Positions 25,772 through 62,809 of a stretch of 64,000 nt of DNA are shown one piece after another. Under the pieces are notes generated by a model. The model ran no database searches. It was given only the letters and a program-made list of their open reading frames with translations, and was not told where the DNA came from. The DNA comes from an uncultured Chloroflexia bacterium (GTDB lineage: Bacteria > Chloroflexota > Anaerolineae > Anaerolineales > UBA11579), in assembly GCA_963797275.1 (NCBI GenBank), contig CAWCOT010000005.1, positions 407,344 through 471,343 on the forward strand, in the 5' to 3' direction. The stretch's first letter is position 1, and the number at the start of each line of letters is the position of its first letter. The translations under genes were made by a program, and so were the position numbers.

Positions 25772-26865
25772 TTGGCTATCTTTGAGTGTAATAACTGTCA
25801 CCGTGCTTATCCTCGGCGTGGCTTGCCTTATAAATGCCCGCATTGCGGAGGCATTTATGGGCTGGCAGGGGTTATTGATTTTCGCTCCGACGAAGTTAAT
25901 GCTACCTTGCCTGGCCTTTGGCGATATCGGCATACCTTTGGATTGCCCGAAAAGGCTCAAGCCGTCTTCCTGGGTGAAGGCGATACGCCGCTAGTCGAAG
26001 CAAAGGGTTTCGGGAAGCGCCTGGCCTTCAAATTGGAGTATCTGTTAATCCAACGGGATCATACAAGGACCGCGGAACGGCCCCGCTGGCCAGCCTGATG
26101 CTGGCGCGCGGCGTGCGCGAAGCTGTGGAGGACTCCTCTGGCAATGCTGGGTCCTCATTTGCGGGCTATGCAGCCCGGGCGGGAATTCATGCCCGAGTGT
26201 ATGTACCCAGCTATGCTTCGGGCCCCAAGCGGCAGCAGATCACCACTTACGGTGCAGAGTTGGTAGCCGTTGAGGGTCCGCGTTCCAACGCGGCCAGGGC
26301 GGTGGGCGAGGTTGCGGAGGCCGGAGCAGTCTATGCCAGCCATGCTTATCTCCCTTTTGGTTTGCCTGGAATTGCCACCATCGCCTACGAGCTGGTGGAG
26401 CAATTGGGCCAGATGCCAGGTTCCGTCGTGGCACCGGTAGGGCACGGAGGTTTGCTCCTGGGAATAGCAAAAGGTTTTGAGGCATTGGCAAGCGCCGGTA
26501 TAATTCCGGCGCAGCCGGTTTTGGTGGGCGTGCAGGCCAGAGCCTGCGCCCCACTTTGGGCGTTAGCGACCCAGGGGGTTGCCGGGCTGGCTTGGGTAAC
26601 TGAAGGAGAAACCGCTGCCGAGGGTGTGCGTGTGCGGCAACCCATGCGTGGGGATGCCTTGCTGGCCGCAGTGGAGGCTTCCCACGGGCGCTTTGTGGCG
26701 GTGGAGGAAGAAGCGATCTTGCCGGCCCGCGACGCGCTGGCATTAACAGGGTTATTTGTAGAGCCGACCTCTGCCATTGTGTGGGCAGCGTTAGGAGAAA
26801 TAGCCGCCGAATTGCCCGAGCCTATCGTGTTGATTTTGACGGGTTCAGGCTTGAAGGCTCTTTGA
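25772..26865 (+). CDS. Threonine-synthase-like PLP enzyme with N-terminal Zn-ribbon; apparent 1-nt deletion near 26045
   Basis: CNNC...CPHCGG is the ribbon. ORF 25772..26098 ends ..AFKLEYL, and the next frame reads NPTGSYKDRGTAPLASLMLARGVREAVEDSSGNAG.. (PLP-Lys motif), continuing in ORF 26098..26865. Confidence 0.75.
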
Positions 26866-28908: not shown

Positions 28909-28963
28909 CAGGCAAAAGCGGTTATATAGTTCAATTGCGCATAGCCACAAGGGAAAGACATTG

Positions 28964-31900
28964 ATGAACGCCTTGCGACTTAAATCCCTCGAGCTTAATG
29001 GCTACAAAACGTTCGCGAGCCGCACGCTGTTTGAGTTTGCCGGGCCGGTAACTGCGGTTGTCGGCCCTAATGGCTCGGGCAAGTCAAATATCGCGGATGC
29101 CTTGCGCTGGGTGCTCGGAGAGCAGTCCTATGGCGTATTACGCGGCCGAAAAACCGAGGACATGATCTTTTCAGGTTCTGATAAAGAGGGCGCGTTCAGG
29201 AATGGCTTCGGTCAGCATCACTTTCGATAACACCGAAGCTTGGCTGCCTATTGATTTCTCCGAAGTTTCCATCACTCGCCGGGCTTATCGGGACGGACAA
29301 AATGAGTACCTGATCAACCAGCAAAAAGTGCGCTTAAAGGATGTGAGCGAGCTTCTTTCCCATTCATCCCTGGCAGAACGAACCTATACGATAATCGGGC
29401 AGGGGCTGGTAGATACGGCATTGACCTTAAAGTCGGATGAACGGCGGCGGTTATTTGAGGAGGCAGCCGGCATTGGCCTTTACCGGACGCGCAAAGATCA
29501 ATCTTTGCGGCGACTGGAAGCCACCTTACACAATTTAGAGCGCGTGGAGGACCTGTTGACGGAGTTGCGGCCGCGAGTGCGCAGTTTGGAGCGGCAGGCG
29601 GCCCGTGCAGAGGAACATTCGCGGTTGCGGGCCGATCTGCGCGCCACGTTGCGCCAGTGGTACGGGTACCACTGGAACCGCGCCCAGGCTGAGCTACTGG
29701 ATTTGCGTCAGGAAGCGGACGACCGCGAGGTGAATTTGGGTGTAGCGCGCCAGAAACAATTGGAATTAAGCCGGGAATTGAACGAATTACGCTCCCGAAC
29801 GCAGGAATTGCGCGTGCAGCTCAACGAATGGAACCGCCGACTGGCTGAACTGCATGCAAGTCGGGAGGGGGCCACCAAGAGCCTGGCCGTGGCTGATGAA
29901 CGTCAAAGGGCGTTAATGGAGCGAAGCCAAGCACTGAAGGAAGAGAAACAGCGCATTGAGAAAGAATTGGAGAACCTGACCGCCCGATTGCAGGAATCTC
30001 AACAAGACGCTGGCCGGTACCAAACAGAGGTAGAGGAGGCGCGGTTACAACTTCAGGAAGCTCAACGGGTTTTGGCTGAGCGGCAGGCAACTCAGGATGA
30101 AACTGCACAACAATTGCAAAATGCACGCGACCAGGTGTCTTTGCTGGAGCGTCAACAGGGGAATTTGGCTGCGCAGCGGGAGCAGCTTGAGGCCAAACTC
30201 GCTCGCGGCCAATCAGAAGCGGCCGAATTGGAGCACAACCTCCTAAACCTCAATAGTGACCTGGCCGCCCTCAAAGAACAATCCAGTCAAGCAGAAGAGC
30301 AGGCTAACCGGGCAGAGAAATCCTCACAAGATTATCAAAAAAGGCAATCCGAACTCGTCGCTCAGACAGAGGAAGAACTCAAGAACCTAGATGACCTGAA
30401 GGAAAAAGCGTCGGACCTCGAGGCGCTCCAAGCACTCATTCAAGCCCAATTAAGGGGACTAGAAGACGCCGAAAAGTCTGCCGCCGGATTTGCTCTTGGG
30501 GCTCAACTGCTCTTAAAGGCCGCCGAAGAAAAGCGCCTGGGAGTCAAACGCGGAACTTTGGGTCGGGAATTGAAAGTGTCCGCGGAACTGGAACCGGCTA
30601 TTGCTGCCGCTCTGGGGAGCTACGTGGATGCCATCGTTCTGGCTGAGAGTAAGGATACGGAAACGGCTTTGAGCCTTCTGGAAGGACGTGAGGCATCAGG
30701 GGCTTTGATTGATACGAGGCATTCCGGCGCCAAGGGGCGTTTGCAGGGGCCCAAGGGAAACGGCCTCCTGGGGGTGGCGGCTGATTTGGTGGAAGCCCCA
30801 GATGAGTTGCAGCACGCGGTGGATTTGTTATTGGGCAGTGTATTGGTAAGCAAGGACCGAAAGTCGGCCAAAAAACTGCTGGAGGAGAACCCGGGCGCAA
30901 CCCAGGTTGTAACCTTACTTGGGGAACTATTCCATCGCTCGGGCCAGATCGAGGTTCGGTCCGCGAAATCATCCGCTGGTTTGGCCCGCCCCGGGAGGAA
31001 CGCCAACTGCTTTCCCGATTAGAGGAAACCCAGAAGGCGGTGCAAGCCAATGGGACGGATCTTGGCAAAGCAAACAGCCGCGTCGCCGATTTGCGGACTC
31101 AGGCTGCCAGCGCTAAGGTCGATGTTGAGAATCAAAAAACCGTCGTAGACGCCGCCCGGCGGGAGGCACAGGCCAAATCGATGGAAGTTGACCAGTTGGA
31201 ACGGCAGATCGAATGGTTCCGCACTCAAGAACGCACCTTGGCAGCCGACCAAGAAAAAGCTCGGGCTCAGATGGAAGAGATAGAGGCCAACGAAGCTGAT
31301 TTGGCCAACAAGTCAGTAGCCGCCAAAGCCGCGCTCGAAACTCAGATTGGTTCGTCCATTGAGGTCCCCATGGATGAGCAGCATGCTCAAGTTGCCCATT
31401 GGGAAATGCGTCAGGCAGTTGCTCAAAGGGCCCTGCAGGAAGCCCAACGCCGGCTTCAAGAACGCCAGCAGGCTTCGGAGAGGGCGGAGCAACAGCTGGG
31501 TTCCCAACAGGAACGCAGCCGAGAAGTGGAGGGGCAGGTCAAGTCCATCGCGGCTGAAATCGAACAATTGGGAAGCCAGGGCAGCGATGTGGGTGAAGAA
31601 ATCACCGGCATCCAAGCCAAAATTGGCCCGGCAGAGCAGGAATTGGCGGAAGCCGATCGTCAACTGAACGAGCAACAAACCGCAGAAAGCCAGGCTATGC
31701 AGGCCCTGAGCGCGGCAGAACGAACTCACACTCAAGCGCAGATCGCCCTGGGCCGCCAACAGGAAGCATTGGAAAGCCTGCGCGGCCGGATCGAGGACGA
31801 CTTTGGGTTGGTAGCCTTCCAATACGAAGCTGGAGTTTCCGGCCCAACCCCTCTGCCGCTTGGTGAACTTGTGGAGCAACTCCCGGTTGTGGAATCGATC

Positions 31901-32569
31901 AGCGCTGATCTAGAAGAAACGCTCAAGCAGCAGCGGGCGCAGATTTGCCGCCTGGGGTCAGTAAACCCAGAAGCGGAACAAGAATACGTACAGGTCAGGT
32001 CGCGAGTGGAGAGCATGGAAGAACAGGTTCGCGACCTGCGCGCTGCTGAAGTGGACTTAAAAAAGGTCATCTCAGAATTGGATGGCTTGATGGAGAGCGA
32101 ATTTCGGGCAACATTCGACCGAGTTGCTGAGGAATTCAAGGATATTTTCGGGCGTCTGTTCAGCGGTGGGGCAGCCAAGTTGGTGCTTACCGAAGAAGGA
32201 GACCTGGCTGCCACAGGTATCGATATAGAAGCGCGCCTGCCGGGCAAGCGTTCACAGCGGCTGGCGCTGCTCTCCGGGGGCGAACGCAGCCTCACGGCTA
32301 CGGCGTTGGTATTTGCTCTCCTAAAGGCTTCGCCCACGCCATTCTGCGTGATGGATGAAGTGGATGCCATGCTGGACGAGGCCAACGTGGGCCGGTTTAC
32401 CGAATTGCTGAGGGAGCTTAGCAAGACCACGCAGTTCGTCGTTATTACACACAACCGTAATACTGTGCAGATAGCAGACGTGATCTACGGAATTACAATG
32501 GGTCGCGATACGGCCAGTCAAGTAATCAGCCTCAAGCTGGATGAGGTCAGTGAGCGATTTACGAGCTAA
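28964..32569 (+). CDS. smc: Chromosome segregation protein SMC; two apparent single-nt frameshifts (about 29183 and about 30990)
   Basis: Walker [10 protein letters not shown] sits in the first piece. [11 protein letters not shown], a long coiled coil and the hinge are in the second piece (29202..31022). LSGGERSL and [10 protein letters not shown] are in the third piece (31040..32569). Confidence 0.85.
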
Positions 32570-35149: not shown

Positions 35150-35527
35150 CTATTTTATGGTGAGTAGATAAGCGACCAGCTGCTGGATCTCTTCGGGAGT
35201 TAGGATTTGGCTCAGTGAGGACGGCATCAAATCCGAAAATCCGTCAACAATGTAAGCGCTAGGGCGCTCAATTGATTGCTGGATGTATTCGTATGCGGGT
35301 AATCCGGTCACCCGCGTTTCGGCACGAGTAGCTAAGCCGGCAAGTGAGGGGCCAGAGACGACGGTGTTCGGTTGGGTTGAATGGCAGGCGGTGCAATGCT
35401 GGGCGAATAAGTATTTGCCCTCTTTTTCTCTTGGCGTCAGGTTTTCGTCTGCTGGGTCCTCGGCACAAGCGCCTAAGACAACTGCACCCAATATTAATAG
35501 CGCCGGGATGCAACGGGCCTTTACCAT
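35150..35527 (-). CDS. Small membrane-anchored or lipoprotein c-type cytochrome
   Basis: Signal with LGAC, then GKYLFAQHCTACHS (CxxCH), ..DLMP.. as the candidate Met ligand, and a C-terminal ..EIQQLVAYLLTIK helix. Confidence 0.8.
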   Translation of the reverse strand: MVKARCIPALLILGAVVLGACAEDPADENLTPREKEGKYLFAQHCTACHSTQPNTVVSGPSLAGLATRAETRVTGLPAYEYIQQSIERPSAYIVDGFSDLMPSSLSQILTPEEIQQLVAYLLTIK

Positions 35528-37590
35528 CTTAGGAGCTCATCAATCTTTGCCCGTAATAGCTCAACGGTTGGAATTAGCGAGTTCATCAAGGGAATATTGA
35601 ACGGAATGGGAGTATCCGGGACGGCTGCACGCTGGATGGGAGCGTCGAGGAAGGTAAAACATTCCTGAGCCAAGGTGGCGGCTATCTCGGCGCCAAAGCC
35701 GCCGGTCAGGCCATCTTCATGGGCTATCAGGCATTTCCCGGTTTTTTTAACTGAAGCCGAAATCGTGGCTTTGTCCCAAGGGGAAATGGTACGCAAGTCA
35801 ATGATCTCTACCTGGCTACCAAATGGTTCAGAAGCTTCCAAACAGCGATGTAACATTTCCCCCCAACTGACTACGGTTAGGTTGCCGCCCTCTTGAAGAA
35901 TGGCTGCCTTTCCGAATGGAAGCGCATAGCCATCGCCTGGATAGGGGCGACGGGAGGGCGGGCTGTCGTAAAGTGCCCGATGCTCCAAAATTATGGTTGG
36001 ATCCTGGCCACGCAGGGCGCTGCGCAGCAGGCCCACGGCATCGGCCGCATTGGAAGGCATCGCTAGTTGCCAACCCAGGCTATGGGCGTAAATGGCTTCG
36101 CCCGAGACGGAATGCCAGGGATCGCCTGTTTTCTTGCTGTGCCCCACTGGGATGCGAATTACAACGGGGGCAGCAAACTTGCCCGCCGTGCGCCAGCGGA
36201 CCCAGCCGATATCATTGATCTGTTCGGTGGCGGGATCGGCATATTTGCGAAATTGTAATTCTGGCAACGGGGTTAGGCCCGCCAGGGCCATGCCGCCAGC
36301 GCGACCAATGATGCCTTCTTCGGAAAGCGAAGTGTCGAACACGCGGGCCTCGCCAAATTTGGCTTGAAGGTCCACAGTTACACGGTGCACGCCTCCGCGG
36401 GGGCCAACATCTTCACCAAAGATGAGAAGGCTCGGGTTGGCTTCAAGCTCAACTTCCATCGCGCGGCGGATGGCTTCAGACATGTTGACGCGGGGACCTT
36501 CCGTCTCCGGCTGAACGGTAAAGTCTAAGGGTGGCTTGTTCAGCTTCGGAGGCACTTGAGCCGAGTATTTCCCGTCCGAGAATAAGTGCTGCTTCCCCGA
36601 ACCGAGAGCCGGCGCGGCGTTTTTCAAGGCGTCAAGCATATGCCCCTGGACCGCTACCCCGGTCTCATCCTCCAATTGTTCCCAAGGCTTCGCTCCAATT
36701 AAATTGCGCATAGCCAAAAAGGGATCTTGTCCACGTTCTTTTTCCAATAGCCTCATGCTCTTATAGGCAGTCTGGTCCTCGCCAAAGGTGTGTCCTGTAA
36801 GGCGTGGTACTTCCACGCGCAACAGGGCTGGACCTTTTCCTGCCCGTACGTACGCCACCGCTTTACCGACAAGGTTCATGGTTAGTTTCGGTTCGGTACC
36901 CGGGCCAGTGAAGATTTGAAGATTTGAATAGGAGGCCAGGTTCGTGCTGATGTTCTCTCCAGGGGTTTGGAAACGGCGCGGCACGGAAATCCCATAGCCG
37001 TTGTCTTCGATGAAGAACAGCATAGGGAGTTTTAGCGTGGTGGCAATATTCAGAGCAGCCCAAAAGCCGTTCGTGGCAACCGAGCCATCCCCTCCCAGAG
37101 CCACTGCAATGGCTCCTTTCCACTCCTGGTGCCTAAGCTGCTGGTTGTAATAGGTAATAGATTGTGCCCAGCCCACAACCGGTGTGTATTGGGCACCTAC
37201 ATCTCCGGAAGAGGGCAATACGGTTACGCCATGGCGCGGTGGCATGGAATACACCACGCCTACGTCACGCCCTTCTGACGGAGAGCCGGTCAGGGCCAGA
37301 TCAGCGGCAAAGGCTTCCTGCGGGGTGAGGCCGGCAGCAAGCAAAAAGGGGCGTGAGCGATAATACACGCCCGCAGCGTCATGGGTGTGGGTTAGTTGCA
37401 AACCGAGAAGAACCTGGGCCAATTCGTGGCCTTTGGAGGAAAATTGGTAGGTTACTTTGCCTTGAGGCGCAAGCGTGGTTTCTTCAGCCTCGTCGATGGC
37501 GCGAGAGGTGAGCACCAAGCGGGCGACTTGCTGCCAATTTGTGGTTTGAGTGGGTTTGGAATTAGGCGCTGTCTGTTTTTTTTCGGGCAC
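35521..37590 (-). CDS. Fused alpha-beta E1 component of a 2-oxoacid dehydrogenase (TPP-dependent)
   Basis: 689 aa. The N-terminal half is E1-alpha-like (..GGDGSVATNGFWAALNIATTLKLPMLFFIEDNGYGIS..). The C-terminal half is E1-beta-like (..LIFGEDVG.RGGV..T..L...FG..RVFDT.LSE..I.G.A.G.A..G..P). Confidence 0.75.
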   Translation of the reverse strand: MPEKKQTAPNSKPTQTTNWQQVARLVLTSRAIDEAEETTLAPQGKVTYQFSSKGHELAQVLLGLQLTHTHDAAGVYYRSRPFLLAAGLTPQEAFAADLALTGSPSEGRDVGVVYSMPPRHGVTVLPSSGDVGAQYTPVVGWAQSITYYNQQLRHQEWKGAIAVALGGDGSVATNGFWAALNIATTLKLPMLFFIEDNGYGISVPRRFQTPGENISTNLASYSNLQIFTGPGTEPKLTMNLVGKAVAYVRAGKGPALLRVEVPRLTGHTFGEDQTAYKSMRLLEKERGQDPFLAMRNLIGAKPWEQLEDETGVAVQGHMLDALKNAAPALGSGKQHLFSDGKYSAQVPPKLNKPPLDFTVQPETEGPRVNMSEAIRRAMEVELEANPSLLIFGEDVGPRGGVHRVTVDLQAKFGEARVFDTSLSEEGIIGRAGGMALAGLTPLPELQFRKYADPATEQINDIGWVRWRTAGKFAAPVVIRIPVGHSKKTGDPWHSVSGEAIYAHSLGWQLAMPSNAADAVGLLRSALRGQDPTIILEHRALYDSPPSRRPYPGDGYALPFGKAAILQEGGNLTVVSWGEMLHRCLEASEPFGSQVEIIDLRTISPWDKATISASVKKTGKCLIAHEDGLTGGFGAEIAATLAQECFTFLDAPIQRAAVPDTPIPFNIPLMNSLIPTVELLRAKIDELLRW

Positions 37591-47720: not shown

Positions 47721-48443
47721 ATGATGGATGTGAGGCTGAATCCGCGAAAAAGTTCTAGTCGTCGAAGATGACCCTGCGATACAGGAAGCATTGGGCTATA
47801 ACCTCGGAAAAGAGGGGTATGAAGTGCTTACCGCGGGGGACGGCCTGGAAGCGCTGAAAGTGGCGCGCAGTTGTGCACCAGACCTGATAGTGCTTGACCT
47901 AATGCTGCCGGAATTGGATGGCTTCGACGTGACGCGCGCGTTGCGCAAAGAGAGCTCGGTACCCATTTTGATGCTTACCCGCGGGACGACGAGATCGACC
48001 GGGTACTGGGGCTTGAGCTAGGAGCCGACGATTATTTGACCAAGCCCTTTTCCATGCGGGAACTGCTGGCGCGGGTCAAAGCCATGCTGCGGCGGGTGCA
48101 AATCGGCAGAGAAGAAGCCGAACCGGCAAAGGGTTTGCCTGAGAAGCTTGTCAATTCAGGGAATATACATATTGACTTGGGAAGGCATGAGACCAGCCTT
48201 AACGGAGAAGTTATTGACCTTAAGCCCAAGGAATTTGACCTGCTTTTATTTTTTATGCAGAACCGAGGTCAGGTGTTTTCAAGGGAGCAACTTTTGGAGC
48301 AAGTATGGGGATGGGAGTTTTCGGGAGGGAGCCGCACCGTAGATGTCCACGTGCGATGGTTGCGTTCGAAGATCGAAGAGGATGCAGAACAACCCACTCG
48401 CATTATAACGGTGCGGGGGGTGGGCTATCGGTTTGAGGGGTAA
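47721..48443 (+). CDS. OmpR/PhoB-family response regulator (PhoP/PhoB-like); two apparent single-nt frameshifts (about 47747..47751 and about 47978..47985)
   Basis: [10 protein letters not shown] | [18 protein letters not shown]...[14 protein letters not shown]...ILMLT | ..[31 protein letters not shown]...TVRGVGYRF. Confidence 0.8.
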
Positions 48444-54753: not shown

Positions 54754-55557
54754 ATGCCTGAAGCGGCATCCCAGACCACCTCGACCGGCCACTACGCAAT
54801 CGAGACTGAGAAATTAAGTGTTTACTACGCGTCTTTTCAAGCAGTCCGCGATGTGGAACTAAAAATCGAGCCGCGTAAGATAACCGCCATAATTGGTCCT
54901 TCCGGATGCGGAAAAAGCACCGTGCTGAGATCCTTCAATCGGATGAATGAACTAGTGCCTGGCACGCGAGCGGTTGGCAAAGTGTTATTTCACGGCCAGA
55001 ATATCTACGAAAGTGGCGTGGATCCCGTTGAAGTGAGACGGCGCATCGGAATGGTGTTTCAAAAACCGAATCCATTTCCGAGATCCATTTACGAAAATAT
55101 TGCCTGGGGTGCGCGCATCAACGGAATTATTGGGGACATGGACGAATTAGTCGAAAGAACGTTGAAGAGTGCGGCGTTGTGGGACGAGGTGCACAACAAG
55201 CTGAACCAGAGTGGGCTCTCCCTTTCTGGTGGGCAGCAACAACGTTTGTGTATTGCGCGAACTATTGCCGTTGAACCCGATATCGTGTTGATGGATGAGC
55301 CATGCTCGGCTCTGGACCCCATCGCAACCTTACGCATTGAAGAGTTGATGCGCGAGTTGGCCAAGCAATACACCATCATCATTGTTACCCACAATATGCA
55401 GCAGGCCGCGCGCGTGTCCGATTACACGGCGTTCTTCTCCCTTTCGGATGATGGCAAGCGCACAGGGATGCTTATGGAATACGGAGATACCAAGTCCATG
55501 TTTACAAATCCGAAGGAAAAAGTCACTGAAGATTATATAACTGGTCGTTTTGGGTAA
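54754..55557 (+). CDS. pstB: Phosphate ABC transporter ATP-binding protein PstB
   Basis: [33 protein letters not shown] and ..TGRFG C-terminus. Confidence 0.9.
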
Positions 55558-55995: not shown

Positions 55996-57624
55996 TTATG
56001 TAATTTTGAGCCAGGAAAAACCGTGGGGCGGAAGGGTTAACTGCAGGGTTTTTTCGACAATTTTTCCTGTTGCACGTCCTGTGAGCAAATCCGGTGGTGG
56101 GAAGTAAATGTCTTCACCGGCTAATTTCACCTCGGCGTCTTGGGCTTTTGAAGTCAGATTATTCAGGATGAGCAGTTTTTCGCCTTGGTAACTGCGATAA
56201 TAAGCGGCGATATATCGTCGCTTATTTACCTCCGCCCAGGCGAAATCTCCCCAGCCAAACGCACGATGAACCTTGCGTACCGCGATCATATTTTTGACTT
56301 TGTAATACATGGAAGCCAAATCCTGCTTCTGGTCGGCCACATTTACCTGCAGGGGCGAGTAGGGCGCATCCTCAATCACAGGAGAATACAGGCTGGCGGC
56401 ATTTGAGAAACCGGCGTTCTTGGTATTGTCCCACTGCATGGGCGTGCGCACCCCGTCGCGGTCATTGAGCCAGATGTTATCGCCCATGCCAATTTCGTCT
56501 CCATAATAGATGATTGGCGAACCAGGAAGTGTAAACAGCAAGGAGTTGGCCAGCACAATCTTGTCAAATTTGTTGTCCAACAGCGGCGCCAGGCGCCGGC
56601 GAATACCAAGGTTGAGGCGCATGCGCGGCTCAGGTGCGTATTCTCGCCACATCCATTGACGCTCGGTTTCCGTCACCATTTCGAGAGTGAGCTCGTCGTG
56701 ATTGCGCAGGAAAGTGCACCACTGGGCATTCTCGGGTATAGGCGGCGTACGCTTGAGGATGCTGCGGATTGGATTGCTGGATTGACGGCGCAATGACATG
56801 AAAATGCGCGGCATCAAGGGAAAGTGGAAGGCCATGTGCATTTCGTCGCCAGCGCCAAAATATTCGCGGACTTGCTTAGGCCACTGGTTGGCTTCGGAGA
56901 GCAGCACGCCGGCGCTGTCGTGCTGATCAAAGGATTTGCGGACGCGTTTGAGGTAGGCGTGTGTTTCAGGCAGGTTTTCACAGTTGGTGCGGGGGCGTTC
57001 GAACAGGTAGGGGATGGCGTCCACACGAAAGCCGTCTATGCCCAGATCCAGCCAAAAAGCCATGGTGTCCAGCATCTCTTGCTGGACGGCGGGATTGTCA
57101 TAGTTCAGATCAGGCTGGAAGGAGTAGAAGCGGTGCCAGTAATATTGGCCGGCTTCTTCATCCCAAGTCCAATTGCTGGTCTCGGTATCTAGAAAAACAA
57201 TACGAGCTCCGGGATATTTCTCGTTGGTGTCGCTCCAGACATAATAATCTCGATATTTGGAGGCTTTGTTTTTGCGGGCGGCCTGAAACCAGGGGTGGGC
57301 GCTGGATGTGTGGTTAAGCACCAGGTCGCTGATGAGGCGAATATTGCGCATGTGAGCTTCGCGGACCAAATCTTTGAAATCTTGTAGTGTTCCGTAGTCC
57401 GGATGAATGCCGCGGAAATCAGCCACGTCGTAGCCATCGTCCAGAAGTGGGGAAGGGAAGATGGGCAGCAACCACACACAATTGACGCCCAAATCTTGGA
57501 GGTAATCCAGTTTCTCTATTACGCCGCGCAGATCCCCATGACCATCGCCGTTGCTATCGCGAAAGGCGCGCACGTAGAGTTCGTAAAAAATTGCGTCTTT
57601 GTACCAGAGAGGAATGCCGTCCAT
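55996..57624 (-). CDS. treS: Trehalose synthase-type GH13 enzyme (maltose alpha-D-glucosyltransferase, TreS-like)
   Basis: [28 protein letters not shown]...DLVLNHTS...[10 protein letters not shown]... I prefer the ATG at 57624; the track start TTG 57693 would read through a terminator-like hairpin. Confidence 0.75.
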
Positions 57625-57630
57625 AAGTTC

Positions 57631-57684
57631 AAAAAATAAAAGGCCTGACCGTATACGAGGGCGCAGTGTAGACGGGTCAGGCCT
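57631..57684 (-). terminator. Terminator-like or intercistronic hairpin between the permease gene and treS
   Basis: A 10-bp stem AGGCCTGACC/GGTCAGGCCT with a loop of about 24 nt. On the minus strand it is followed by TTTTATTTTTT. Confidence 0.5.
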
Positions 57685-57711
57685 TTTGGTCAAGTGGTTT
57701 TGTCCGCTGAG

Positions 57712-58900
57712 TTATCCTTTCACAGAGCCAGCCAGCAAACCGCGTACAAAGTAGCGCTGAAAAGCGAAGAACACGATCATGGGCAGGATCATCGACAGGA
57801 AGGCAGAAGACGTTAGCAACTGCCATCCGCCACCCAGCGATTGCACCAGATTATTGATCTGGTAGGTGAGCACCGGCTTGGCCCCGGTTAAGAAGACCAA
57901 AGCGACCAGTAGGTCATTCCACACCCACAGGAACTGGAAGATGGCCAGGGAGGCTAAGGCTGGCATGGAAAGCGGCAGTGCCAATCTGTAAAAGGCCGTC
58001 CAATGGGAGGCTCCATCCAGATAGGCAGATTCGAACAGATCCTTTGGCAAGGCCCCGATGAAGTTGCGCATCAGGTAGATGGCATAAGGCAATCCGAAGC
58101 CCGTATGGAACAGCCATACTCCCAGAAAGGTGGCGTTTAGACCGAGTTGAGCATAGAGGCGAGAAATGGGTACCAGGGTCATTTGAAGCGGTACGATTTG
58201 TAAGCCAACCAGTAGCGCAAATATCCACATGCGGCCGCGGAATTCCAGCCAGGAAAAGGCGTAAGCGGCCAGAGCGCCAAAGATCAATGGCAGAAAAGTT
58301 GCCGGGATACTTACGATCAATGTGTTTACAAAAGCTTGGCCCATTCCGCGTGGATTACTCAGGTCCGTTACAAAGTTGCAGGTTAGGTCTGAGCTTTGCG
58401 TTCCGGCAGCGCATTCGTCTGCATAGCTGCTGGTGCCGCGATAGCCCACCAGAGAGTCTACATAATTGCTAAGGGAAACCCTGGGCCGGGTATCCACGCC
58501 AGCGTTTCGCCGCAGATAGGAAAGGATATCCGCCAGGGTTTGGTCGTCTGGCCTTGCGTCCTGCGGGATGTGTACAACTCCGTCATATTCATTATTAAAG
58601 GTGGCTTTGATTGAAACCGATCGTTTGATGCTGCCAATGTAAGCTGGATCACTCAGGTTGGCGGCAGCTATAGCGTCTCCCGGTCGGACCATGGCAGGAT
58701 GCGCAGAATTGTTGATATTCGTCGTTTCCAGGGAGGGCGCTGAAAACCGTCCACCAACCGGTCTCGTTGGCATCCTGAACGGGCCGGAAAGAAGTTACCA
58801 GTAATCCAAGCGTGGGCACTATCCAGATCACGGTCAGAAGAATGATGAGAATGTGAACCGGAAGAGCCCCCAGCCAATTTCGAAACCGTTGGATATTCAT
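57712..58900 (-). CDS. MalG-type carbohydrate ABC transporter permease with a cytochrome-c-like (CxxCH) periplasmic insert; 1-nt frameshift near 58679..58681
   Basis: ATG 58900 gives MNIQRFRNWLGALPVHILIILLTVIWIVP...GWWTVFSALPGNDEYQQFCASCHGPTG. After a frame change it continues DAIAAANLSDP...SLSNYV...GMGQAFVNTLIVSIPAT...DGASHWTAFYRLALP (EAA loop). Confidence 0.7.
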
Positions 58901-59858
58901 CGGATCGCCTCTTGTTCTCTGAAGCGTTTGATGTTCAGGTACATAAATGGGAATTACCGCCATCACCAGGATGGTAGCGACAGCGGTGCCGAGCGCCAGT
59001 ATTATGGCTAATATACATGGTCTGGTACATGCGATTAGCAATCACGTCGGTGCTGTAATTCCCACCGGTCATTACGAAGACAATATCGAATATTTTCAGT
59101 GTGTTGATGACCATGGTGGTAATTACCACCGTGATGGTTGGCAGGATAATGGGAATGGTAATGCGCCAGAAAGCCCGCCATTCTGAGGCGCCGTCCAGGC
59201 GGGCGGCCTCAAGGAGTTCAGTTGGCACGCCTTTGATAGCGGCTGATAAAATGACCATGCAAAAGCCTGCCCAAATCCAAATCCCCACGATGATGAGCAT
59301 GAAAGTGTTAATGGGTATTCGGGTCAAGAAGGATACAGGCTCTCCGCCAAACAGCCGCACGATTGCATTCAGTAGTCCGATCTGCGTATTCTTCGTTCCA
59401 AATGCATACATGAATTTCCAAATAACACCTGCGCCCACAAATGAAATTGCCATGGGCAGGAAAATAATTGACTTGGCGACTGACTCGTAGCTAACGCGGT
59501 CAGCGATAACGGCCAAAAGGAGGCCAAAGCCCACCGAACCCGTAACCATAAATAGCAGCCACTTAATATTGTCTCCAAAGGACGAGATCCAAAAACTAGA
59601 CCAAAGTGTGCCTGCATTGGCTGTGTTTAGTTCATCGAAAATTGCATGCCGGTAATTTTCAAAGATTCCCCAACAAGGTTGCCCTTGCACGCAGGTGGAC
59701 GAAGCCCAGGTAGTTGAGTTACCACTCAACAGACTCAGGTAAATCGTATTGAACATTGGGTAGATAATGAAAATGATGACGATCAACAGGGCGGGCAATA
59801 TGTAAAGCCAAGGTATCAACGGCCCCTGTCTCATTATATTGGGTGAACGCGATGCCAT
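58897..59858 (-). CDS. MalF-type carbohydrate ABC transporter permease; two frameshifts in the last ~150 nt
   Basis: ..EAARLDGASEWRAFWRITIPIILP.. is the EAA loop. The tail needs ..YQTMYISHNTGA | GTAVATILVMAVIP | MYLNIKRFREQEAIR*. TGA 58897..58899 forms an ATGA overlap with the next gene. Confidence 0.7.
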
Positions 59859-59937: not shown

Positions 59938-61291
59938 CTATTGACCCATCTGGTCCGCGTGTTGAGCAGCCGCGGCATTGGCGAGTGCATCCTGGATGCT
60001 GGAAGCACCGCTAACGACGTCTACAATCGCCTTCCATTCTGCAGTCGGGAAGGTTGGTTGGATGGAGTCACCAAGGTCAGGAGTGGCAGCCGTGGCGTTC
60101 GCCAGAACGGCAGCCAGATCGGCATTGGTGGGATCCATGTAGTGGCCAGTGGAGCCATTGTTCGGGGAAAGACCAAAGCCGGCCTCGCGCCCAGGCAGCA
60201 CCGCCATCCGCGCTGGTGATGAAGCTGACCAGAGCATGTACAGCGGGGGTGTCATTGAAGGCCATCATGCCAGTCAGCACCACTCTGAACGCCCTGGGCG
60301 CCTGGGAAGGGAAAGAAGGCAAAGTCAGTGCCCATATTCCAGCTCAGGGAACTGAGCCTTGACGTTGCCGCCAGCGAAACCAGACTGCTTAACCATCATG
60401 GCTTCCGGGGGATCCGAGAAGGGCTTGAGCAAAGCATCCGAGAAAGATGTGCTCAAAGCGCCGTCCGCGCCACCCAGGAGTAAGCAGGATCGGTAGCCCA
60501 GTTAGAGTAGATCTGGTAAGCCTCGGCCACGCCAGGATCATCGTAGGAAACGGTGCCGTCAATGATGCCATTGACGAAGTCCGGGCCCTGCGTGGTCAGC
60601 AGGATGTCCTGAATGAAGTCAGAAGCGGTCCAACCAGTGGCATCACCGCTCTCGAAACCCATGGAGAATGGCACGTTGCCATCGGCGACCATTTGGTCAG
60701 CCAGAGCAGTGAAGTCGTCCCAGGTGGTGGGAACGGAGTAGCCAGTTGCATCAAAATTTACGGGGCTGTACCACACGATTGTCTTGGGGTCAGCTTTGAC
60801 ACCGACTGCCACCCAGTTGCCGTTGGAGTAAGCCTTCCAGGCATCAGGAGTAGTTGTCAGCATGCACCGCCGAGGGAGTCGAGGGCTTTCAGTTGTCTGC
60901 CATAAGCTACGACCGGAGCTGTGCTCGGCCAGATTACGATGTCGTAGGGGGTTCCAGCCTGGACACGGGTATCGCAGCAGAGCCTGGTCGCGAGTGGACT
61001 CGGTTTGCAGGATCGATACCGCATTGGTCGAGCGAGGGGCTGCACGGCAGCCTTGAAACAGATCTTCCTCATCGCCGGACCGCTGGTAAACGATCGCTGA
61101 CTGTCGTCGCCAGAGGCGGCGCCCATGCACATATCCATGGGTTCGGCCATTGCCTCTGTGGGAGCGGGGGCTTCGGTGGGGGAGGCGGGAGCGGCGGGGG
61201 CGGTCGTTGCGGCGGCACCGCAAGCGGCCAAAACCAGCGCCGACACACTGAGCAGGCTCACTAAGAGCCATGCTTTTTTAAAGGTCTTCAT
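59938..61291 (-). pseudogene. Family-1 sugar ABC solute-binding lipoprotein, broken by about 10 frame changes (either a pseudogene or heavily mis-called sequence)
   Basis: AAGGAG SD plus MKTFKKAWLLVSLLSVSALVLAAC lipobox at 61291. Good SBP-like peptide pieces are spread over all three frames down to ..AQHADQMGQ* at 59938. Confidence 0.7.
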
Positions 61292-61646: not shown

Positions 61647-62633
61647 TTACTTAAATACTTCGTAGTAGCCGCGATCCAACTCATCATCACTTAAGTGGGC
61701 GTAGCGTTGGGTGACTTGGATATTGCGGTGGCGGGCAAGTTCTTGGGCCAGTTTAAGGTTGCCTCCCGAAGCGCGCAGCACTGTGGTTACAAAAAAATGA
61801 CGGAAGGAGTGCGGTGTGATTGTGCCAGCGGCCTGATCGCCAAGAGCCTGACGCACGCGTTGGGCTATGATGTTGCGGCCGGTGGTGGGCGTGATTGGCT
61901 TCACTTGGTTGCCACCACCTTTGTCGTGGCGAGCGAAGATGGGCAAGGAGGTCAATGCTTTGCCTGAGCCACCATCAATAGAGGCGCGAGCGTTCAGATA
62001 ATCTTTTAGCGCGGTCAGCGAGCGTTTGGAGAACCGCACGACCGCTTGTCGGTTACCCTTTCCGATGATGATGGCTTTACCCTCGTTCCAATCCAGGTCG
62101 CCGCGCCGCAAGTTGCAAGCCTCGTGCACGCGCAAGCCCGTATCTCCCAACGTGATAATGAAGGCTCGGTCTCGCAGATTGCGCAAATGTTCTTGGTCAT
62201 CCTCTGTTGGGGCGGAGACAAGACCTTGAGCAAACCCCATCATTTGCTCGATAGCATCACGCGGGAATTGTGGCAAGCGCGGCCCGGGCCGACGGCCGCG
62301 CTGGCGAATCAGAAGCCGCACACGTGGAAGGTTGGGCTCGGCGAGTTTTTCAGCTGCTAGGAATTCGTAAAAGCCGGACACGGCGGTTAACCGTAGGCGC
62401 TCCGTGGCTGGCGAAAGGTTCTTTTGGTCCGTGGCAAACAAAGCTACTGCATCCTCAGTGAGCGAGGCCAAGCTGGTCTGGGCTGGGTCCAGTCCGTCTT
62501 TCAAAAGGGCTGCGCGAAAGGCGTCCAAGGCCTTCCGGTAGGTGAGGGCGGTGTTTTCAGAACGCGCCAGGGTCACACTGTCAATGTATCGCGCAATCGC
62601 CTGGTCGACAGTAATTCCTGATAAGCTGTCCAT
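61647..62633 (-). CDS. Tyrosine recombinase/integrase (XerC/D-like)
   Basis: N-terminal SAM-like core-binding domain. Catalytic ..TGLRVHEACNLRRGDL.. (Arg), ..HSFRHFF.. (HxxR), ..LARHRNIQVTQRYAHL (His, Tyr). Confidence 0.85.
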   Translation of the reverse strand: MDSLSGITVDQAIARYIDSVTLARSENTALTYRKALDAFRAALLKDGLDPAQTSLASLTEDAVALFATDQKNLSPATERLRLTAVSGFYEFLAAEKLAEPNLPRVRLLIRQRGRRPGPRLPQFPRDAIEQMMGFAQGLVSAPTEDDQEHLRNLRDRAFIITLGDTGLRVHEACNLRRGDLDWNEGKAIIIGKGNRQAVVRFSKRSLTALKDYLNARASIDGGSGKALTSLPIFARHDKGGGNQVKPITPTTGRNIIAQRVRQALGDQAAGTITPHSFRHFFVTTVLRASGGNLKLAQELARHRNIQVTQRYAHLSDDELDRGYYEVFK

Positions 62634-62640
62634 AGCGCGC

Positions 62641-62670
62641 ATTATATGGGAGGCGCAATAGTTATCGCAA
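62641..62670 (-). promoter_or_regulatory. Putative leaderless promoter of the integrase gene
   Basis: Minus strand: TTGCGA (62665..62670), 18 nt, TATAAT (62641..62646), 7 nt, ATG 62633 (MDSLSG...). Confidence 0.45.
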
Positions 62671-62809
62671 GCAAAGAGGACGGTCAATTGGCCAAATAGG
62701 GGCCGGGGGTTCTCGAAAGTCGCCGTGTCTTCTTGCGTTGCGTATAGTTTTATGCGAAGGCCTCGGCCAAGCGTGGGGCTTTAATTTTATTGATACTGGC
62801 TGTGAGCCC

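Follow-up and report, generated by a model that had tools for sequence, protein, structure and literature searches.

In type I ATP-binding cassette (ABC) sugar importers of the MalG kind, the N-terminus of the permease is cytoplasmic and the first loop, P1, is periplasmic. In the closest described relatives of the protein considered here, SugB of the mycobacterial LpqY-SugABC importer (7cad, 8ja7) and MalG of Escherichia coli (2r6g), the loop between transmembrane helices (TM) 1 and 2 is short and free of cofactors, and in the E. coli maltose transporter the P2 loop of the permease MalF contacts the binding protein. To our knowledge, the known regulation of type I importers acts from the cytoplasmic side, on the ATPase or through regulatory domains, or through the binding protein, and we know of no characterized ABC importer with a cytochrome c-type heme domain. 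Here we describe a MalG/SugB-type permease gene from a 64,000-nucleotide stretch of DNA (hereafter the window; contig CAWCOT010000005.1, uncultured Chloroflexia bacterium), in which the P1 loop is predicted to carry an inserted class-I cytochrome c domain. Like SugB and MalG, the protein has the type I importer fold with a BPD_transp_1 core and an EAA loop, and it is encoded together with a binding protein and a second permease in a sugar/trehalose context, with TreS next door. Unlike them, it has a TM1-TM2 loop of about 149 residues that holds the cytochrome c module and a pair of Cys residues. A full-text search of the literature found no paper that describes an ABC importer permease with a heme or cytochrome c domain.

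The gene is broken by a frameshift, and the window's own annotation gives it as two fragments (P0201, 83 aa, and P0002, 326 aa). A first-pass annotation, made from the letters alone, had proposed that a single-nucleotide slip joins a frame containing a CASCH motif to the longer open reading frame (ORF) that follows it, and direct reading of the sequence bears this out. On the minus strand, the ATG at 58900..58898 starts a protein beginning MNIQRF that runs through TM1 to GWWTVFSALPGNDEYQQFCASCHGPTG, and the CASCH codons occupy 58705..58691. That frame terminates at a TGA (58651..58649); the remainder of the loop and the conserved core are encoded in the next frame, by the long ORF 57712..58773. 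Deleting any one base of 58677..58681 joins the two into a continuous protein of 395 aa. More than 100 homologues that are full-length and unbroken (391-398 aa) came out of a database search; P0001, an intact relative, is 98% identical, and the remainder are 64-77% identical and come mostly from metagenome-assembled genomes (MAGs) of Anaerolineales/Chloroflexota. Many of the homologues already carry precomputed matches to PF13442 or PF00034.

The likeness to cytochrome c that had been suggested for this loop was recovered by Pfam, by profile searches of the PDB and by comparison with tandem cytochrome domains. Once the frame was repaired, the loop scored 23.3 bits on PF00034, above the cut-off of 21.3. 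When orthologous loops were tested, all 18 matched PF13442 (best E 2e-9) and 13 of the 18 matched PF00034. A profile of the 18 loops found CcoP cytochrome c domains in the PDB (E 2.5e-5), along with c6 cytochromes and others, and an exhaustive search of 1.84 billion representative proteins with the loop profile returned tandem multi-domain cytochromes c with E down to 1e-43, a value that sums over their repeats. Against just one domain of such a tandem protein, hhalign gave a probability of 96.6% and an E of 6.7e-10 over 79 columns; the aligned elements were the N-terminal helix, CxxCHG..G, the central region and a C-terminal helix of the form ..ADIL.YLRR..G. The N- and C-terminal helices expected of a cytochrome c are also present in the loop of the AlphaFold2 (AF2) model of the full protein, although AF2 builds no heme into its models. 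Three results weigh against this assignment: the window's repaired loop reaches 22.7 bits on PF13442, below the cut-off of 27 bits; an AF2 model of the loop alone has a mean predicted local distance difference test score (pLDDT) of just 67, which is low confidence; and a Foldseek search with that model ranks cytochromes c6, c-556, TtX183A and a Teredinibacter cytochrome domain first at E values of 2 or more, which are not significant. With these set beside the profile matches, a class-I domain of mono-heme type inserted in P1 is a supported prediction from sequence.

Conservation across orthologues singles out the putative heme site. The CxxCH motif is present in 79 of 79 related loci, and twelve loop positions are invariant in all 78 full-length orthologues: C66, C69, H70, G71, G74, R93, S94, H110, P117, A123, C163 and C174. 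Many other positions of the loop vary freely and the orthologous loops are just ~50-60% identical to one another, so the motif is no chance occurrence. A reading of the loop in the alternative frame, without CxxCH, is likewise ruled out, since the orthologues read it in the CxxCH frame. The axial Met of the G-x-M-P region, typical of class-I cytochromes c although not universal, falls at position 109, occupied here by P, I, V or L, and H110 stands next to it. Met111 is kept in just 55% of orthologues and no Met is conserved nearby. The first-pass annotation had seen no Met ligand and had thought His/His ligation conceivable, and the His of its VVHIPQ segment proves to be this invariant H110. 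We therefore predict a His/His heme c site with H70 and H110 as axial ligands. The offset of H110 by one residue from the canonical Met position counts against it, and the ligand role is thus reached indirectly. C163 and C174, in the part of the loop outside the cytochrome module, probably form a disulfide.

An alternative is that the CxxCH domain is a relic cytochrome fold that no longer holds heme and instead binds a metal ion or forms a disulfide. The loss of the axial Met, window Pfam scores that lie near the cut-offs and the first description of some carriers as strictly fermentative anaerobes are all compatible with such a relic. However, CxxCH is normally lost from relic cytochrome domains, whereas here both Cys and the His of the motif, the next Gly and the second His are invariant in 78 species, a pattern typical of functional heme sites. 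The carriers also encode components of the Ccm system as well as multi-heme enzymes, and we regard loss of heme as highly unlikely.

The capacity to attach heme was considered from the related loci, the description of one cultured carrier and the window. A motif scan of the related loci for Ccm components found one CcmF, the cytochrome c heme lyase of System I; its gene precedes the operon by ~4 kb in a MAG of an uncultured Pelolinea (L026 2031..4073, plus strand). Thermanaerothrix daxensis, a bacterium with a single membrane, has genes for ACIII, NirS and NrfA (PMC4653793). In the window itself, a second c-type cytochrome that had been noted at 35150..35527 is genuine, with 43.5 bits on PF00034. 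Its gene overlaps by 7 nt the end of a gene for a fused alpha/beta E1 component of a 2-oxoacid dehydrogenase (35521..37590, minus strand), an unusual pairing. Cytochrome c maturation is thus plausible in the carriers, and in the permease a heme would be linked covalently to C66 and C69 by such a maturation system.

Apart from its loop, the protein is a conventional permease. Residues 206-387 of the repaired protein match BPD_transp_1 (PF00528) with 56.8 bits against a cut-off of 26.4, and among solved structures the sequence matches SugB (E 2e-26) and MalG (E 2e-13), both aligned only from residue 187 on. The AF2 model of the full protein (pLDDT 82) places helix TM1 at residues 15-37 and helix TM2 at 186-217, with pLDDT 83-93 for the blocks of the loop, and its top Foldseek matches are chains of SugB, from the LpqY-SugABC trehalose importer, and MalG (E 3e-9 to 1e-6; TM-score ~0.6-0.67, normalized to the target). 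The EAA-type coupling loop, FESAYLDGASHWTAFYRLALPL, spans residues 289-310. In a set of 23 sequences, E290, A292, D295, G296, L306, P309 and L310 of this loop are invariant; in a set of 95, E290, G296, L306, P309 and L310 are invariant, D295 is nearly so and A292 is not among the conserved positions. The orthologues are labelled as AglG-type alpha-glucoside permeases (KEGG K10234) by JGI, an automatic annotation. Homology to MalG and the position between TM1 and TM2 would put the cytochrome module on the outer side of the membrane.

The module can also be set beside known heme domains. It resembles class-I cytochromes c such as CcoP, c6 and the tandem cytochromes of Chloroflexota in that an N-terminal helix leads into CxxCHG..G and is followed by a central loop and an amphipathic C-terminal helix. 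It differs in that the Met of G-x-M-P is missing and an invariant His stands one residue later, and in that class-I cytochromes c are free or anchored at the N-terminus, whereas the module here is inserted in a polytopic transporter and tethered at both ends. When His takes the place of the axial Met, the midpoint potential drops by several hundred millivolts. His/His ligation in a fold of the class-I type, with the low potential that goes with it, is known from 4h0k, an M58H form of cytochrome c6, and from cytochrome c550 (PsbV) of cyanobacterial photosystem II. PsbV is bound to the outer face of the complex and is mainly structural, its heme having no established redox function. PsbV is, however, a separate soluble subunit of the photosystem and not part of a transporter, and its sequence comparison with the module is limited to c6-type matches. 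In the chemoreceptors GSU0582 and GSU0935 of Geobacter and DcrA of Desulfovibrio, a covalently bound c-heme lies in an extracytoplasmic loop between two TM helices of a membrane protein that is not respiratory, and has been proposed to sense redox state or small ligands. The likeness to these receptors is one of architecture alone, since their heme domains have a PAS-like fold and signal to cytoplasmic kinase or methyl-accepting modules.

In a scan with one genome per species, relatives of the protein occurred in at least 256 species. The best 80 of these belong almost all to the Anaerolineae (Chloroflexota), and intact orthologues span 391-400 aa. Cultured carriers are Pelolinea submarina MO-CFX1, Thermanaerothrix daxensis GNS-1 (L076) and T. 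solaris. Two carriers are labelled Zixiibacteriota (L016) and Sulfomarinibacteraceae (L051), which could reflect horizontal transfer or mis-binning; L051 also has a NapC/NirT-type tetraheme cytochrome nearby. Two proteins bear on the origin of the insert. The first, P0246, has no cytochrome module yet keeps the flanking GWW and NYVDAL.GYRG..C..C..NPRGM elements; a word-index search with the loop profile, which gave mostly fragments of genes, also brought up copies without the module. The second is a paralogous permease on L001, a contig syntenic with the window that also carries the intact, 98%-identical copy of the permease; the paralogue (L001 14283..15383, 3 kb downstream) is 43% identical to the permease and carries, bounded by the same pair of motifs, an unrelated insert that is similar in size and free of Cys. 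The long P1 loop is bounded by TSFR..GWW and SNY.D.L.G motifs, and both of these motifs are common to the cofactor-free L001 paralogue and P0246. The P1 loop of the AglG-like clade is therefore a site that accepts different modules, and the cytochrome c domain is, as judged from sequence, a module fixed at this site in the present lineage. The P2 loop of MalF and the P1 insert of the AglG-like L001 paralogue are comparable to the module as large extracytoplasmic insertions in ABC importer permeases, and the paralogue's occupies precisely the position of the module, flanked by GWW and NY.D. Unlike the module, these two insertions have different folds, no cofactor and no CxxCH.

These observations raise the question of what a heme would do on the P1 loop. 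We propose that, after membrane insertion, the loop would be exposed outside the single membrane of the monoderm carrier, where a maturation system would link heme to C66 and C69, and H70 and H110 would give a low-potential, six-coordinate His/His heme. The module would then lie on the side of the permease that receives the binding protein. Most speculatively, a change in the redox state or the ligand of the heme would alter this docking surface, such that sugar import is tuned to ambient redox conditions or oxygen. We favor such a modulation of docking or transport by the state of the heme over a purely structural role, with a rough probability of 0.35 to 0.4, because paralogues manage with cofactor-free inserts and yet a costly covalent heme with an altered sixth ligand has been kept. 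A more specific form of this proposal, in which the low-potential His/His heme c is a built-in sensor of redox state or gas that gates docking of the binding protein and so couples uptake of trehalose or another compatible solute to redox conditions or oxygen, is possible but tentative.

A close rival is that the heme serves folding and stability alone, with the cytochrome fold as a compact, rigid extracytoplasmic scaffold that helps the binding protein to dock, much as MalF P2 does; PsbV, with its His/His heme, would be a comparable case. Several findings weigh against modulation and are accommodated by a scaffold. Invariance of the heme ligands is equally expected if the heme is needed only for folding. 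The non-heme insert of the L001 paralogue, unrelated and of similar size in a protein with 43% identity, suggests that the basic job of a P1 insert is structural, and together with P0246, which has no module, it suggests that these are interchangeable structural modules. In the operon loci, no redox partner, sensor output or regulator was found adjoining the permease gene. On the other side, covalent heme is costly and needs dedicated maturation while cofactor-free inserts work in the paralogues, and an invariant His in place of Met points to selection on the properties of the heme, beyond its presence. A scaffold is in our judgment a doubtful but real contender, and the evidence does not separate the modulating from the structural reading, with electron transfer and heme loss both less likely.

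For electron transfer, the domain would work with a partner such as an extracytoplasmic glucoside 3-dehydrogenase, or would be a respiratory cytochrome that happens to be attached to a permease. The closest relatives of the module are indeed tandem class-I domains of the electron-transfer type, and the PDB matches include the c-type cytochrome domain of a carbohydrate-active protein from Teredinibacter (8q1v). However, no oxidoreductase is conserved in the operon, a low-potential His/His heme is poorly suited to the typical roles of class-I carriers and the domain is tethered to the transporter at both ends. Of the explanations weighed here we give this one the slimmest chance.

The operon itself indicates what the importer with the predicted heme domain may transport. 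The gene order is conserved and consists of a LacI-type regulator, a lipoprotein binding protein (~446 aa), a MalF-like permease (320 aa), the cytochrome-bearing permease and TreS or a hydrolase; the binding-protein and MalF-like genes adjoin the permease gene in most loci, as they do in the window. TreS is the next gene after the permease in 34 of 67 loci and the next but one in 11 more, and in 10 of the 67 an MGH1/GH63-like hydrolase follows the permease directly. In the window the operon ends in treS, as the first-pass annotation had it, with a TIGR02456 match across the gene (Table 1). Compared with solved proteins, the binding protein gave weak matches only, to AcbH and the Thermus glucose-binding protein. 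From this context the substrate is likely trehalose or a related alpha-glucoside compatible solute, and the permease is most likely a membrane subunit, of MalG/SugB type, in an alpha-glucoside importer that depends on a binding protein, with trehalose favored. No ATPase gene was found in the operon loci examined, and the ATPase is presumably encoded elsewhere and shared. A tandem double binding protein (~850 aa), with halves that are very alike in many cases, is encoded in 14 related loci, and a tandem binding protein stands upstream of the MalF-like gene in L003, L011, L015, L029, L030, L042, L050, L052, L055, L057, L063, L071 and L078. The tyrosine recombinase gene found upstream of the operon in the window is also present at L001, while most other species have the LacI-type regulator at that position.

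Table 1. Positions in the window of the permease gene, its parts and the neighboring genes referred to in the text.
Feature	Position	Strand	Basis or remark
MalG/SugB-type ABC importer permease with cytochrome c insert	57712..58900	-	395 aa after removing one extra base
Split of the permease gene in the assembly			83-aa ORF + 326/353-aa ORF
Frameshift site, one extra base relative to intact L001	58677..58681	-	G at 58677, adjoining GGG 58679..58681; blastn
TM1 (residues 14-37), N-terminus cytoplasmic	58790..58861	-	AF2 helix 15-37 and alignment with MalG-type TM1
Extracytoplasmic loop P1 (residues 38-186, ~149 aa; ~30 aa in SugB)	58342..58789	-	AF2 model
Predicted class-I cytochrome c module (residues ~56-137)	58489..58735	-	PF00034/PF13442, CcoP and c6 profile matches, hhalign
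CASCH heme-attachment motif (C66, C69, H70)	58691..58705	-	Direct reading; invariant in orthologues
H110, candidate distal (sixth) heme ligand	58570..58572	-	Invariant in 78/78; one residue past the position aligned with the axial Met of CcoP and of the tandem cytochromes
Invariant NY.D...GYRG motif, preceding the Cys pair	58435..58467	-	
Invariant C163...C174 pair outside the cytochrome part of the loop, a probable disulfide	58378..58413	-	78/78 orthologues; kept in P0246
Conserved transmembrane core TM2-TM6	57715..58341	-	PF00528, SugB/MalG matches
EAA-type loop FESAYLDGAS...LALPL	57970..58035	-	Within the TM2-TM6 core
MalF-like partner permease	58897..59858	-	Stop overlaps malG start (ATGA); broken by two extra bases at 58995 and 58952
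Lipoprotein solute-binding protein	59938..61291	-	Broken by ~19 single-base indels in the assembly
treS (maltose alpha-D-glucosyltransferase / trehalose synthase), last gene of the operon	55996..57693	-	TIGR02456, 805 bits against a cut-off of 678
Tyrosine recombinase (phage-integrase family)	61647..62687	-	Directly upstream of the operon
Small lipoprotein-like mono-heme cytochrome c	35150..35527	-	PF00034, 43.5 bits

Whether the frameshift belongs to the organism or to the assembly was judged from L001, which served as the reference for insertions and deletions (indels) and for the ratio of nonsynonymous to synonymous divergence (dN/dS). At the site of the extra base, the blastn alignment reads 'CCGGGA-ACGCTA' in L001 and 'CCGGGAGACGCTA' in the window. 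The three transporter genes are 93.5% identical to L001 and differ from it by about 24 single-base indels, most of which are additional bases in the window. The binding-protein gene has ~19 of them, its MalF-like neighbor has 2 and the cytochrome-bearing permease has the one at 58677 plus a compensating pair at 58048/58051. By a wide margin the substitutions in these genes are synonymous. The dN/dS against L001 is 0.023 for the cytochrome-bearing permease, which is under strong purifying selection, 0.020 for its MalF-like partner and 0.087 for the binding protein, which shows 11 amino-acid differences against 19 indels. With ~19 indels alongside 11 amino-acid differences and dN/dS below 0.1, these genes are not long dead. 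Indels also break genes elsewhere in the window. The SMC gene (28960..32569, plus strand) is in at least three frameshifted pieces, an N-terminus and parts of 606 and 509 aa in three frames; an OmpR-type response regulator gene (~47750..48443, plus strand) is frameshifted between its receiver and DNA-binding domains; and a threonine-synthase-like gene (25772..26865, plus strand) falls into two ORFs, one of 108 and one of 255 aa. Since SMC is a housekeeping gene, its breakage argues for indel errors in the assembly. Short-read contigs from four soil metagenomes are without the window's extra bases at 58952, 58995, 60847, 60865, 60899, 60974, 61013, 61295 and 61350.

Very probably, then, the frameshift at 58677 is an assembly artefact and the gene is intact in the organism, and the simplest reading is an indel-prone assembly that is worst in a strain-variable, poorly polished segment. 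It counts against this conclusion that the short-read contigs from the four soil metagenomes leave 58255..58778 uncovered and hence do not reach 58677. A search of public sequencing runs gave no match to 57700..59100 of the window. A programmed frameshift was also considered and ruled out, as the intact orthologues are unshifted, the site is not conserved and ~20 similar indels occur in the neighboring genes.

Alternatively, the window copy could be a genuine pseudogene, with the change at 58677 and the ~20 other indels of the operon real and the strain in the course of losing the transporter. The concentration of indels in the three transporter genes fits such a loss, given that the flanks of the operon are 99% identical to L001 with 2 gaps; so does the fact that the strain also lacks an adjacent 6.5-kb sugar-uptake segment of L001, and site 58677 is without read coverage. 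However, dN/dS values of 0.02-0.09 in the same genes and the excess of indels over amino-acid differences in the binding protein are unlike neutral decay, the breaks in SMC and other housekeeping genes indicate general indel errors, and the raised synonymous divergence (dS) of the transporter genes (0.14-0.46, compared with 0.03 for the flanks) is as expected of a minor-strain stretch that was poorly polished. We consider a pseudogene unlikely.

The junction with L001 shows further differences between the two contigs. Where the window has 57600..57700, L001 has 6.5 kb extra between the permease and treS (L001 11231..17734). This segment encodes another sugar ABC system, made up of a binding protein in split form and a pair of permeases, one of which has a long P1 insert with no cofactor; it also has genes for a P-loop kinase and for a member of the alpha-amylase family. 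The climb of dS from 0.03 in the flanks to 0.34-0.46 beside this junction suggests recombination or strain mixing. The L001 assembly has indel errors too, for its pstB is split into ORFs of 204 and 65 aa (L001 19787..20591) while the gene is intact in the window (54754..55557).

We conclude that the locus encodes a type I sugar importer of the standard kind, apart from an insert that is predicted to bear a cofactor and for which we know of no precedent. Both domains of the permease have already been seen by automated pipelines. NCBI names some partial copies 'c-type cytochrome' and the window copy was called as two ORFs, so that automatic annotation splits or mislabels these permease genes. 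Type I ABC importers are among the best-studied transporters, and the family described here extends over at least 256 species-level genomes. If the prediction is true, this would be the first ABC importer with a covalently bound redox cofactor on its transmembrane subunit. Its carriers include abundant Anaerolineae of sediments, soils and digesters and three cultured strains, which makes the proposal directly testable. A heme on an outward-facing loop would be a new control point for importers and a new setting for the cytochrome c domain.

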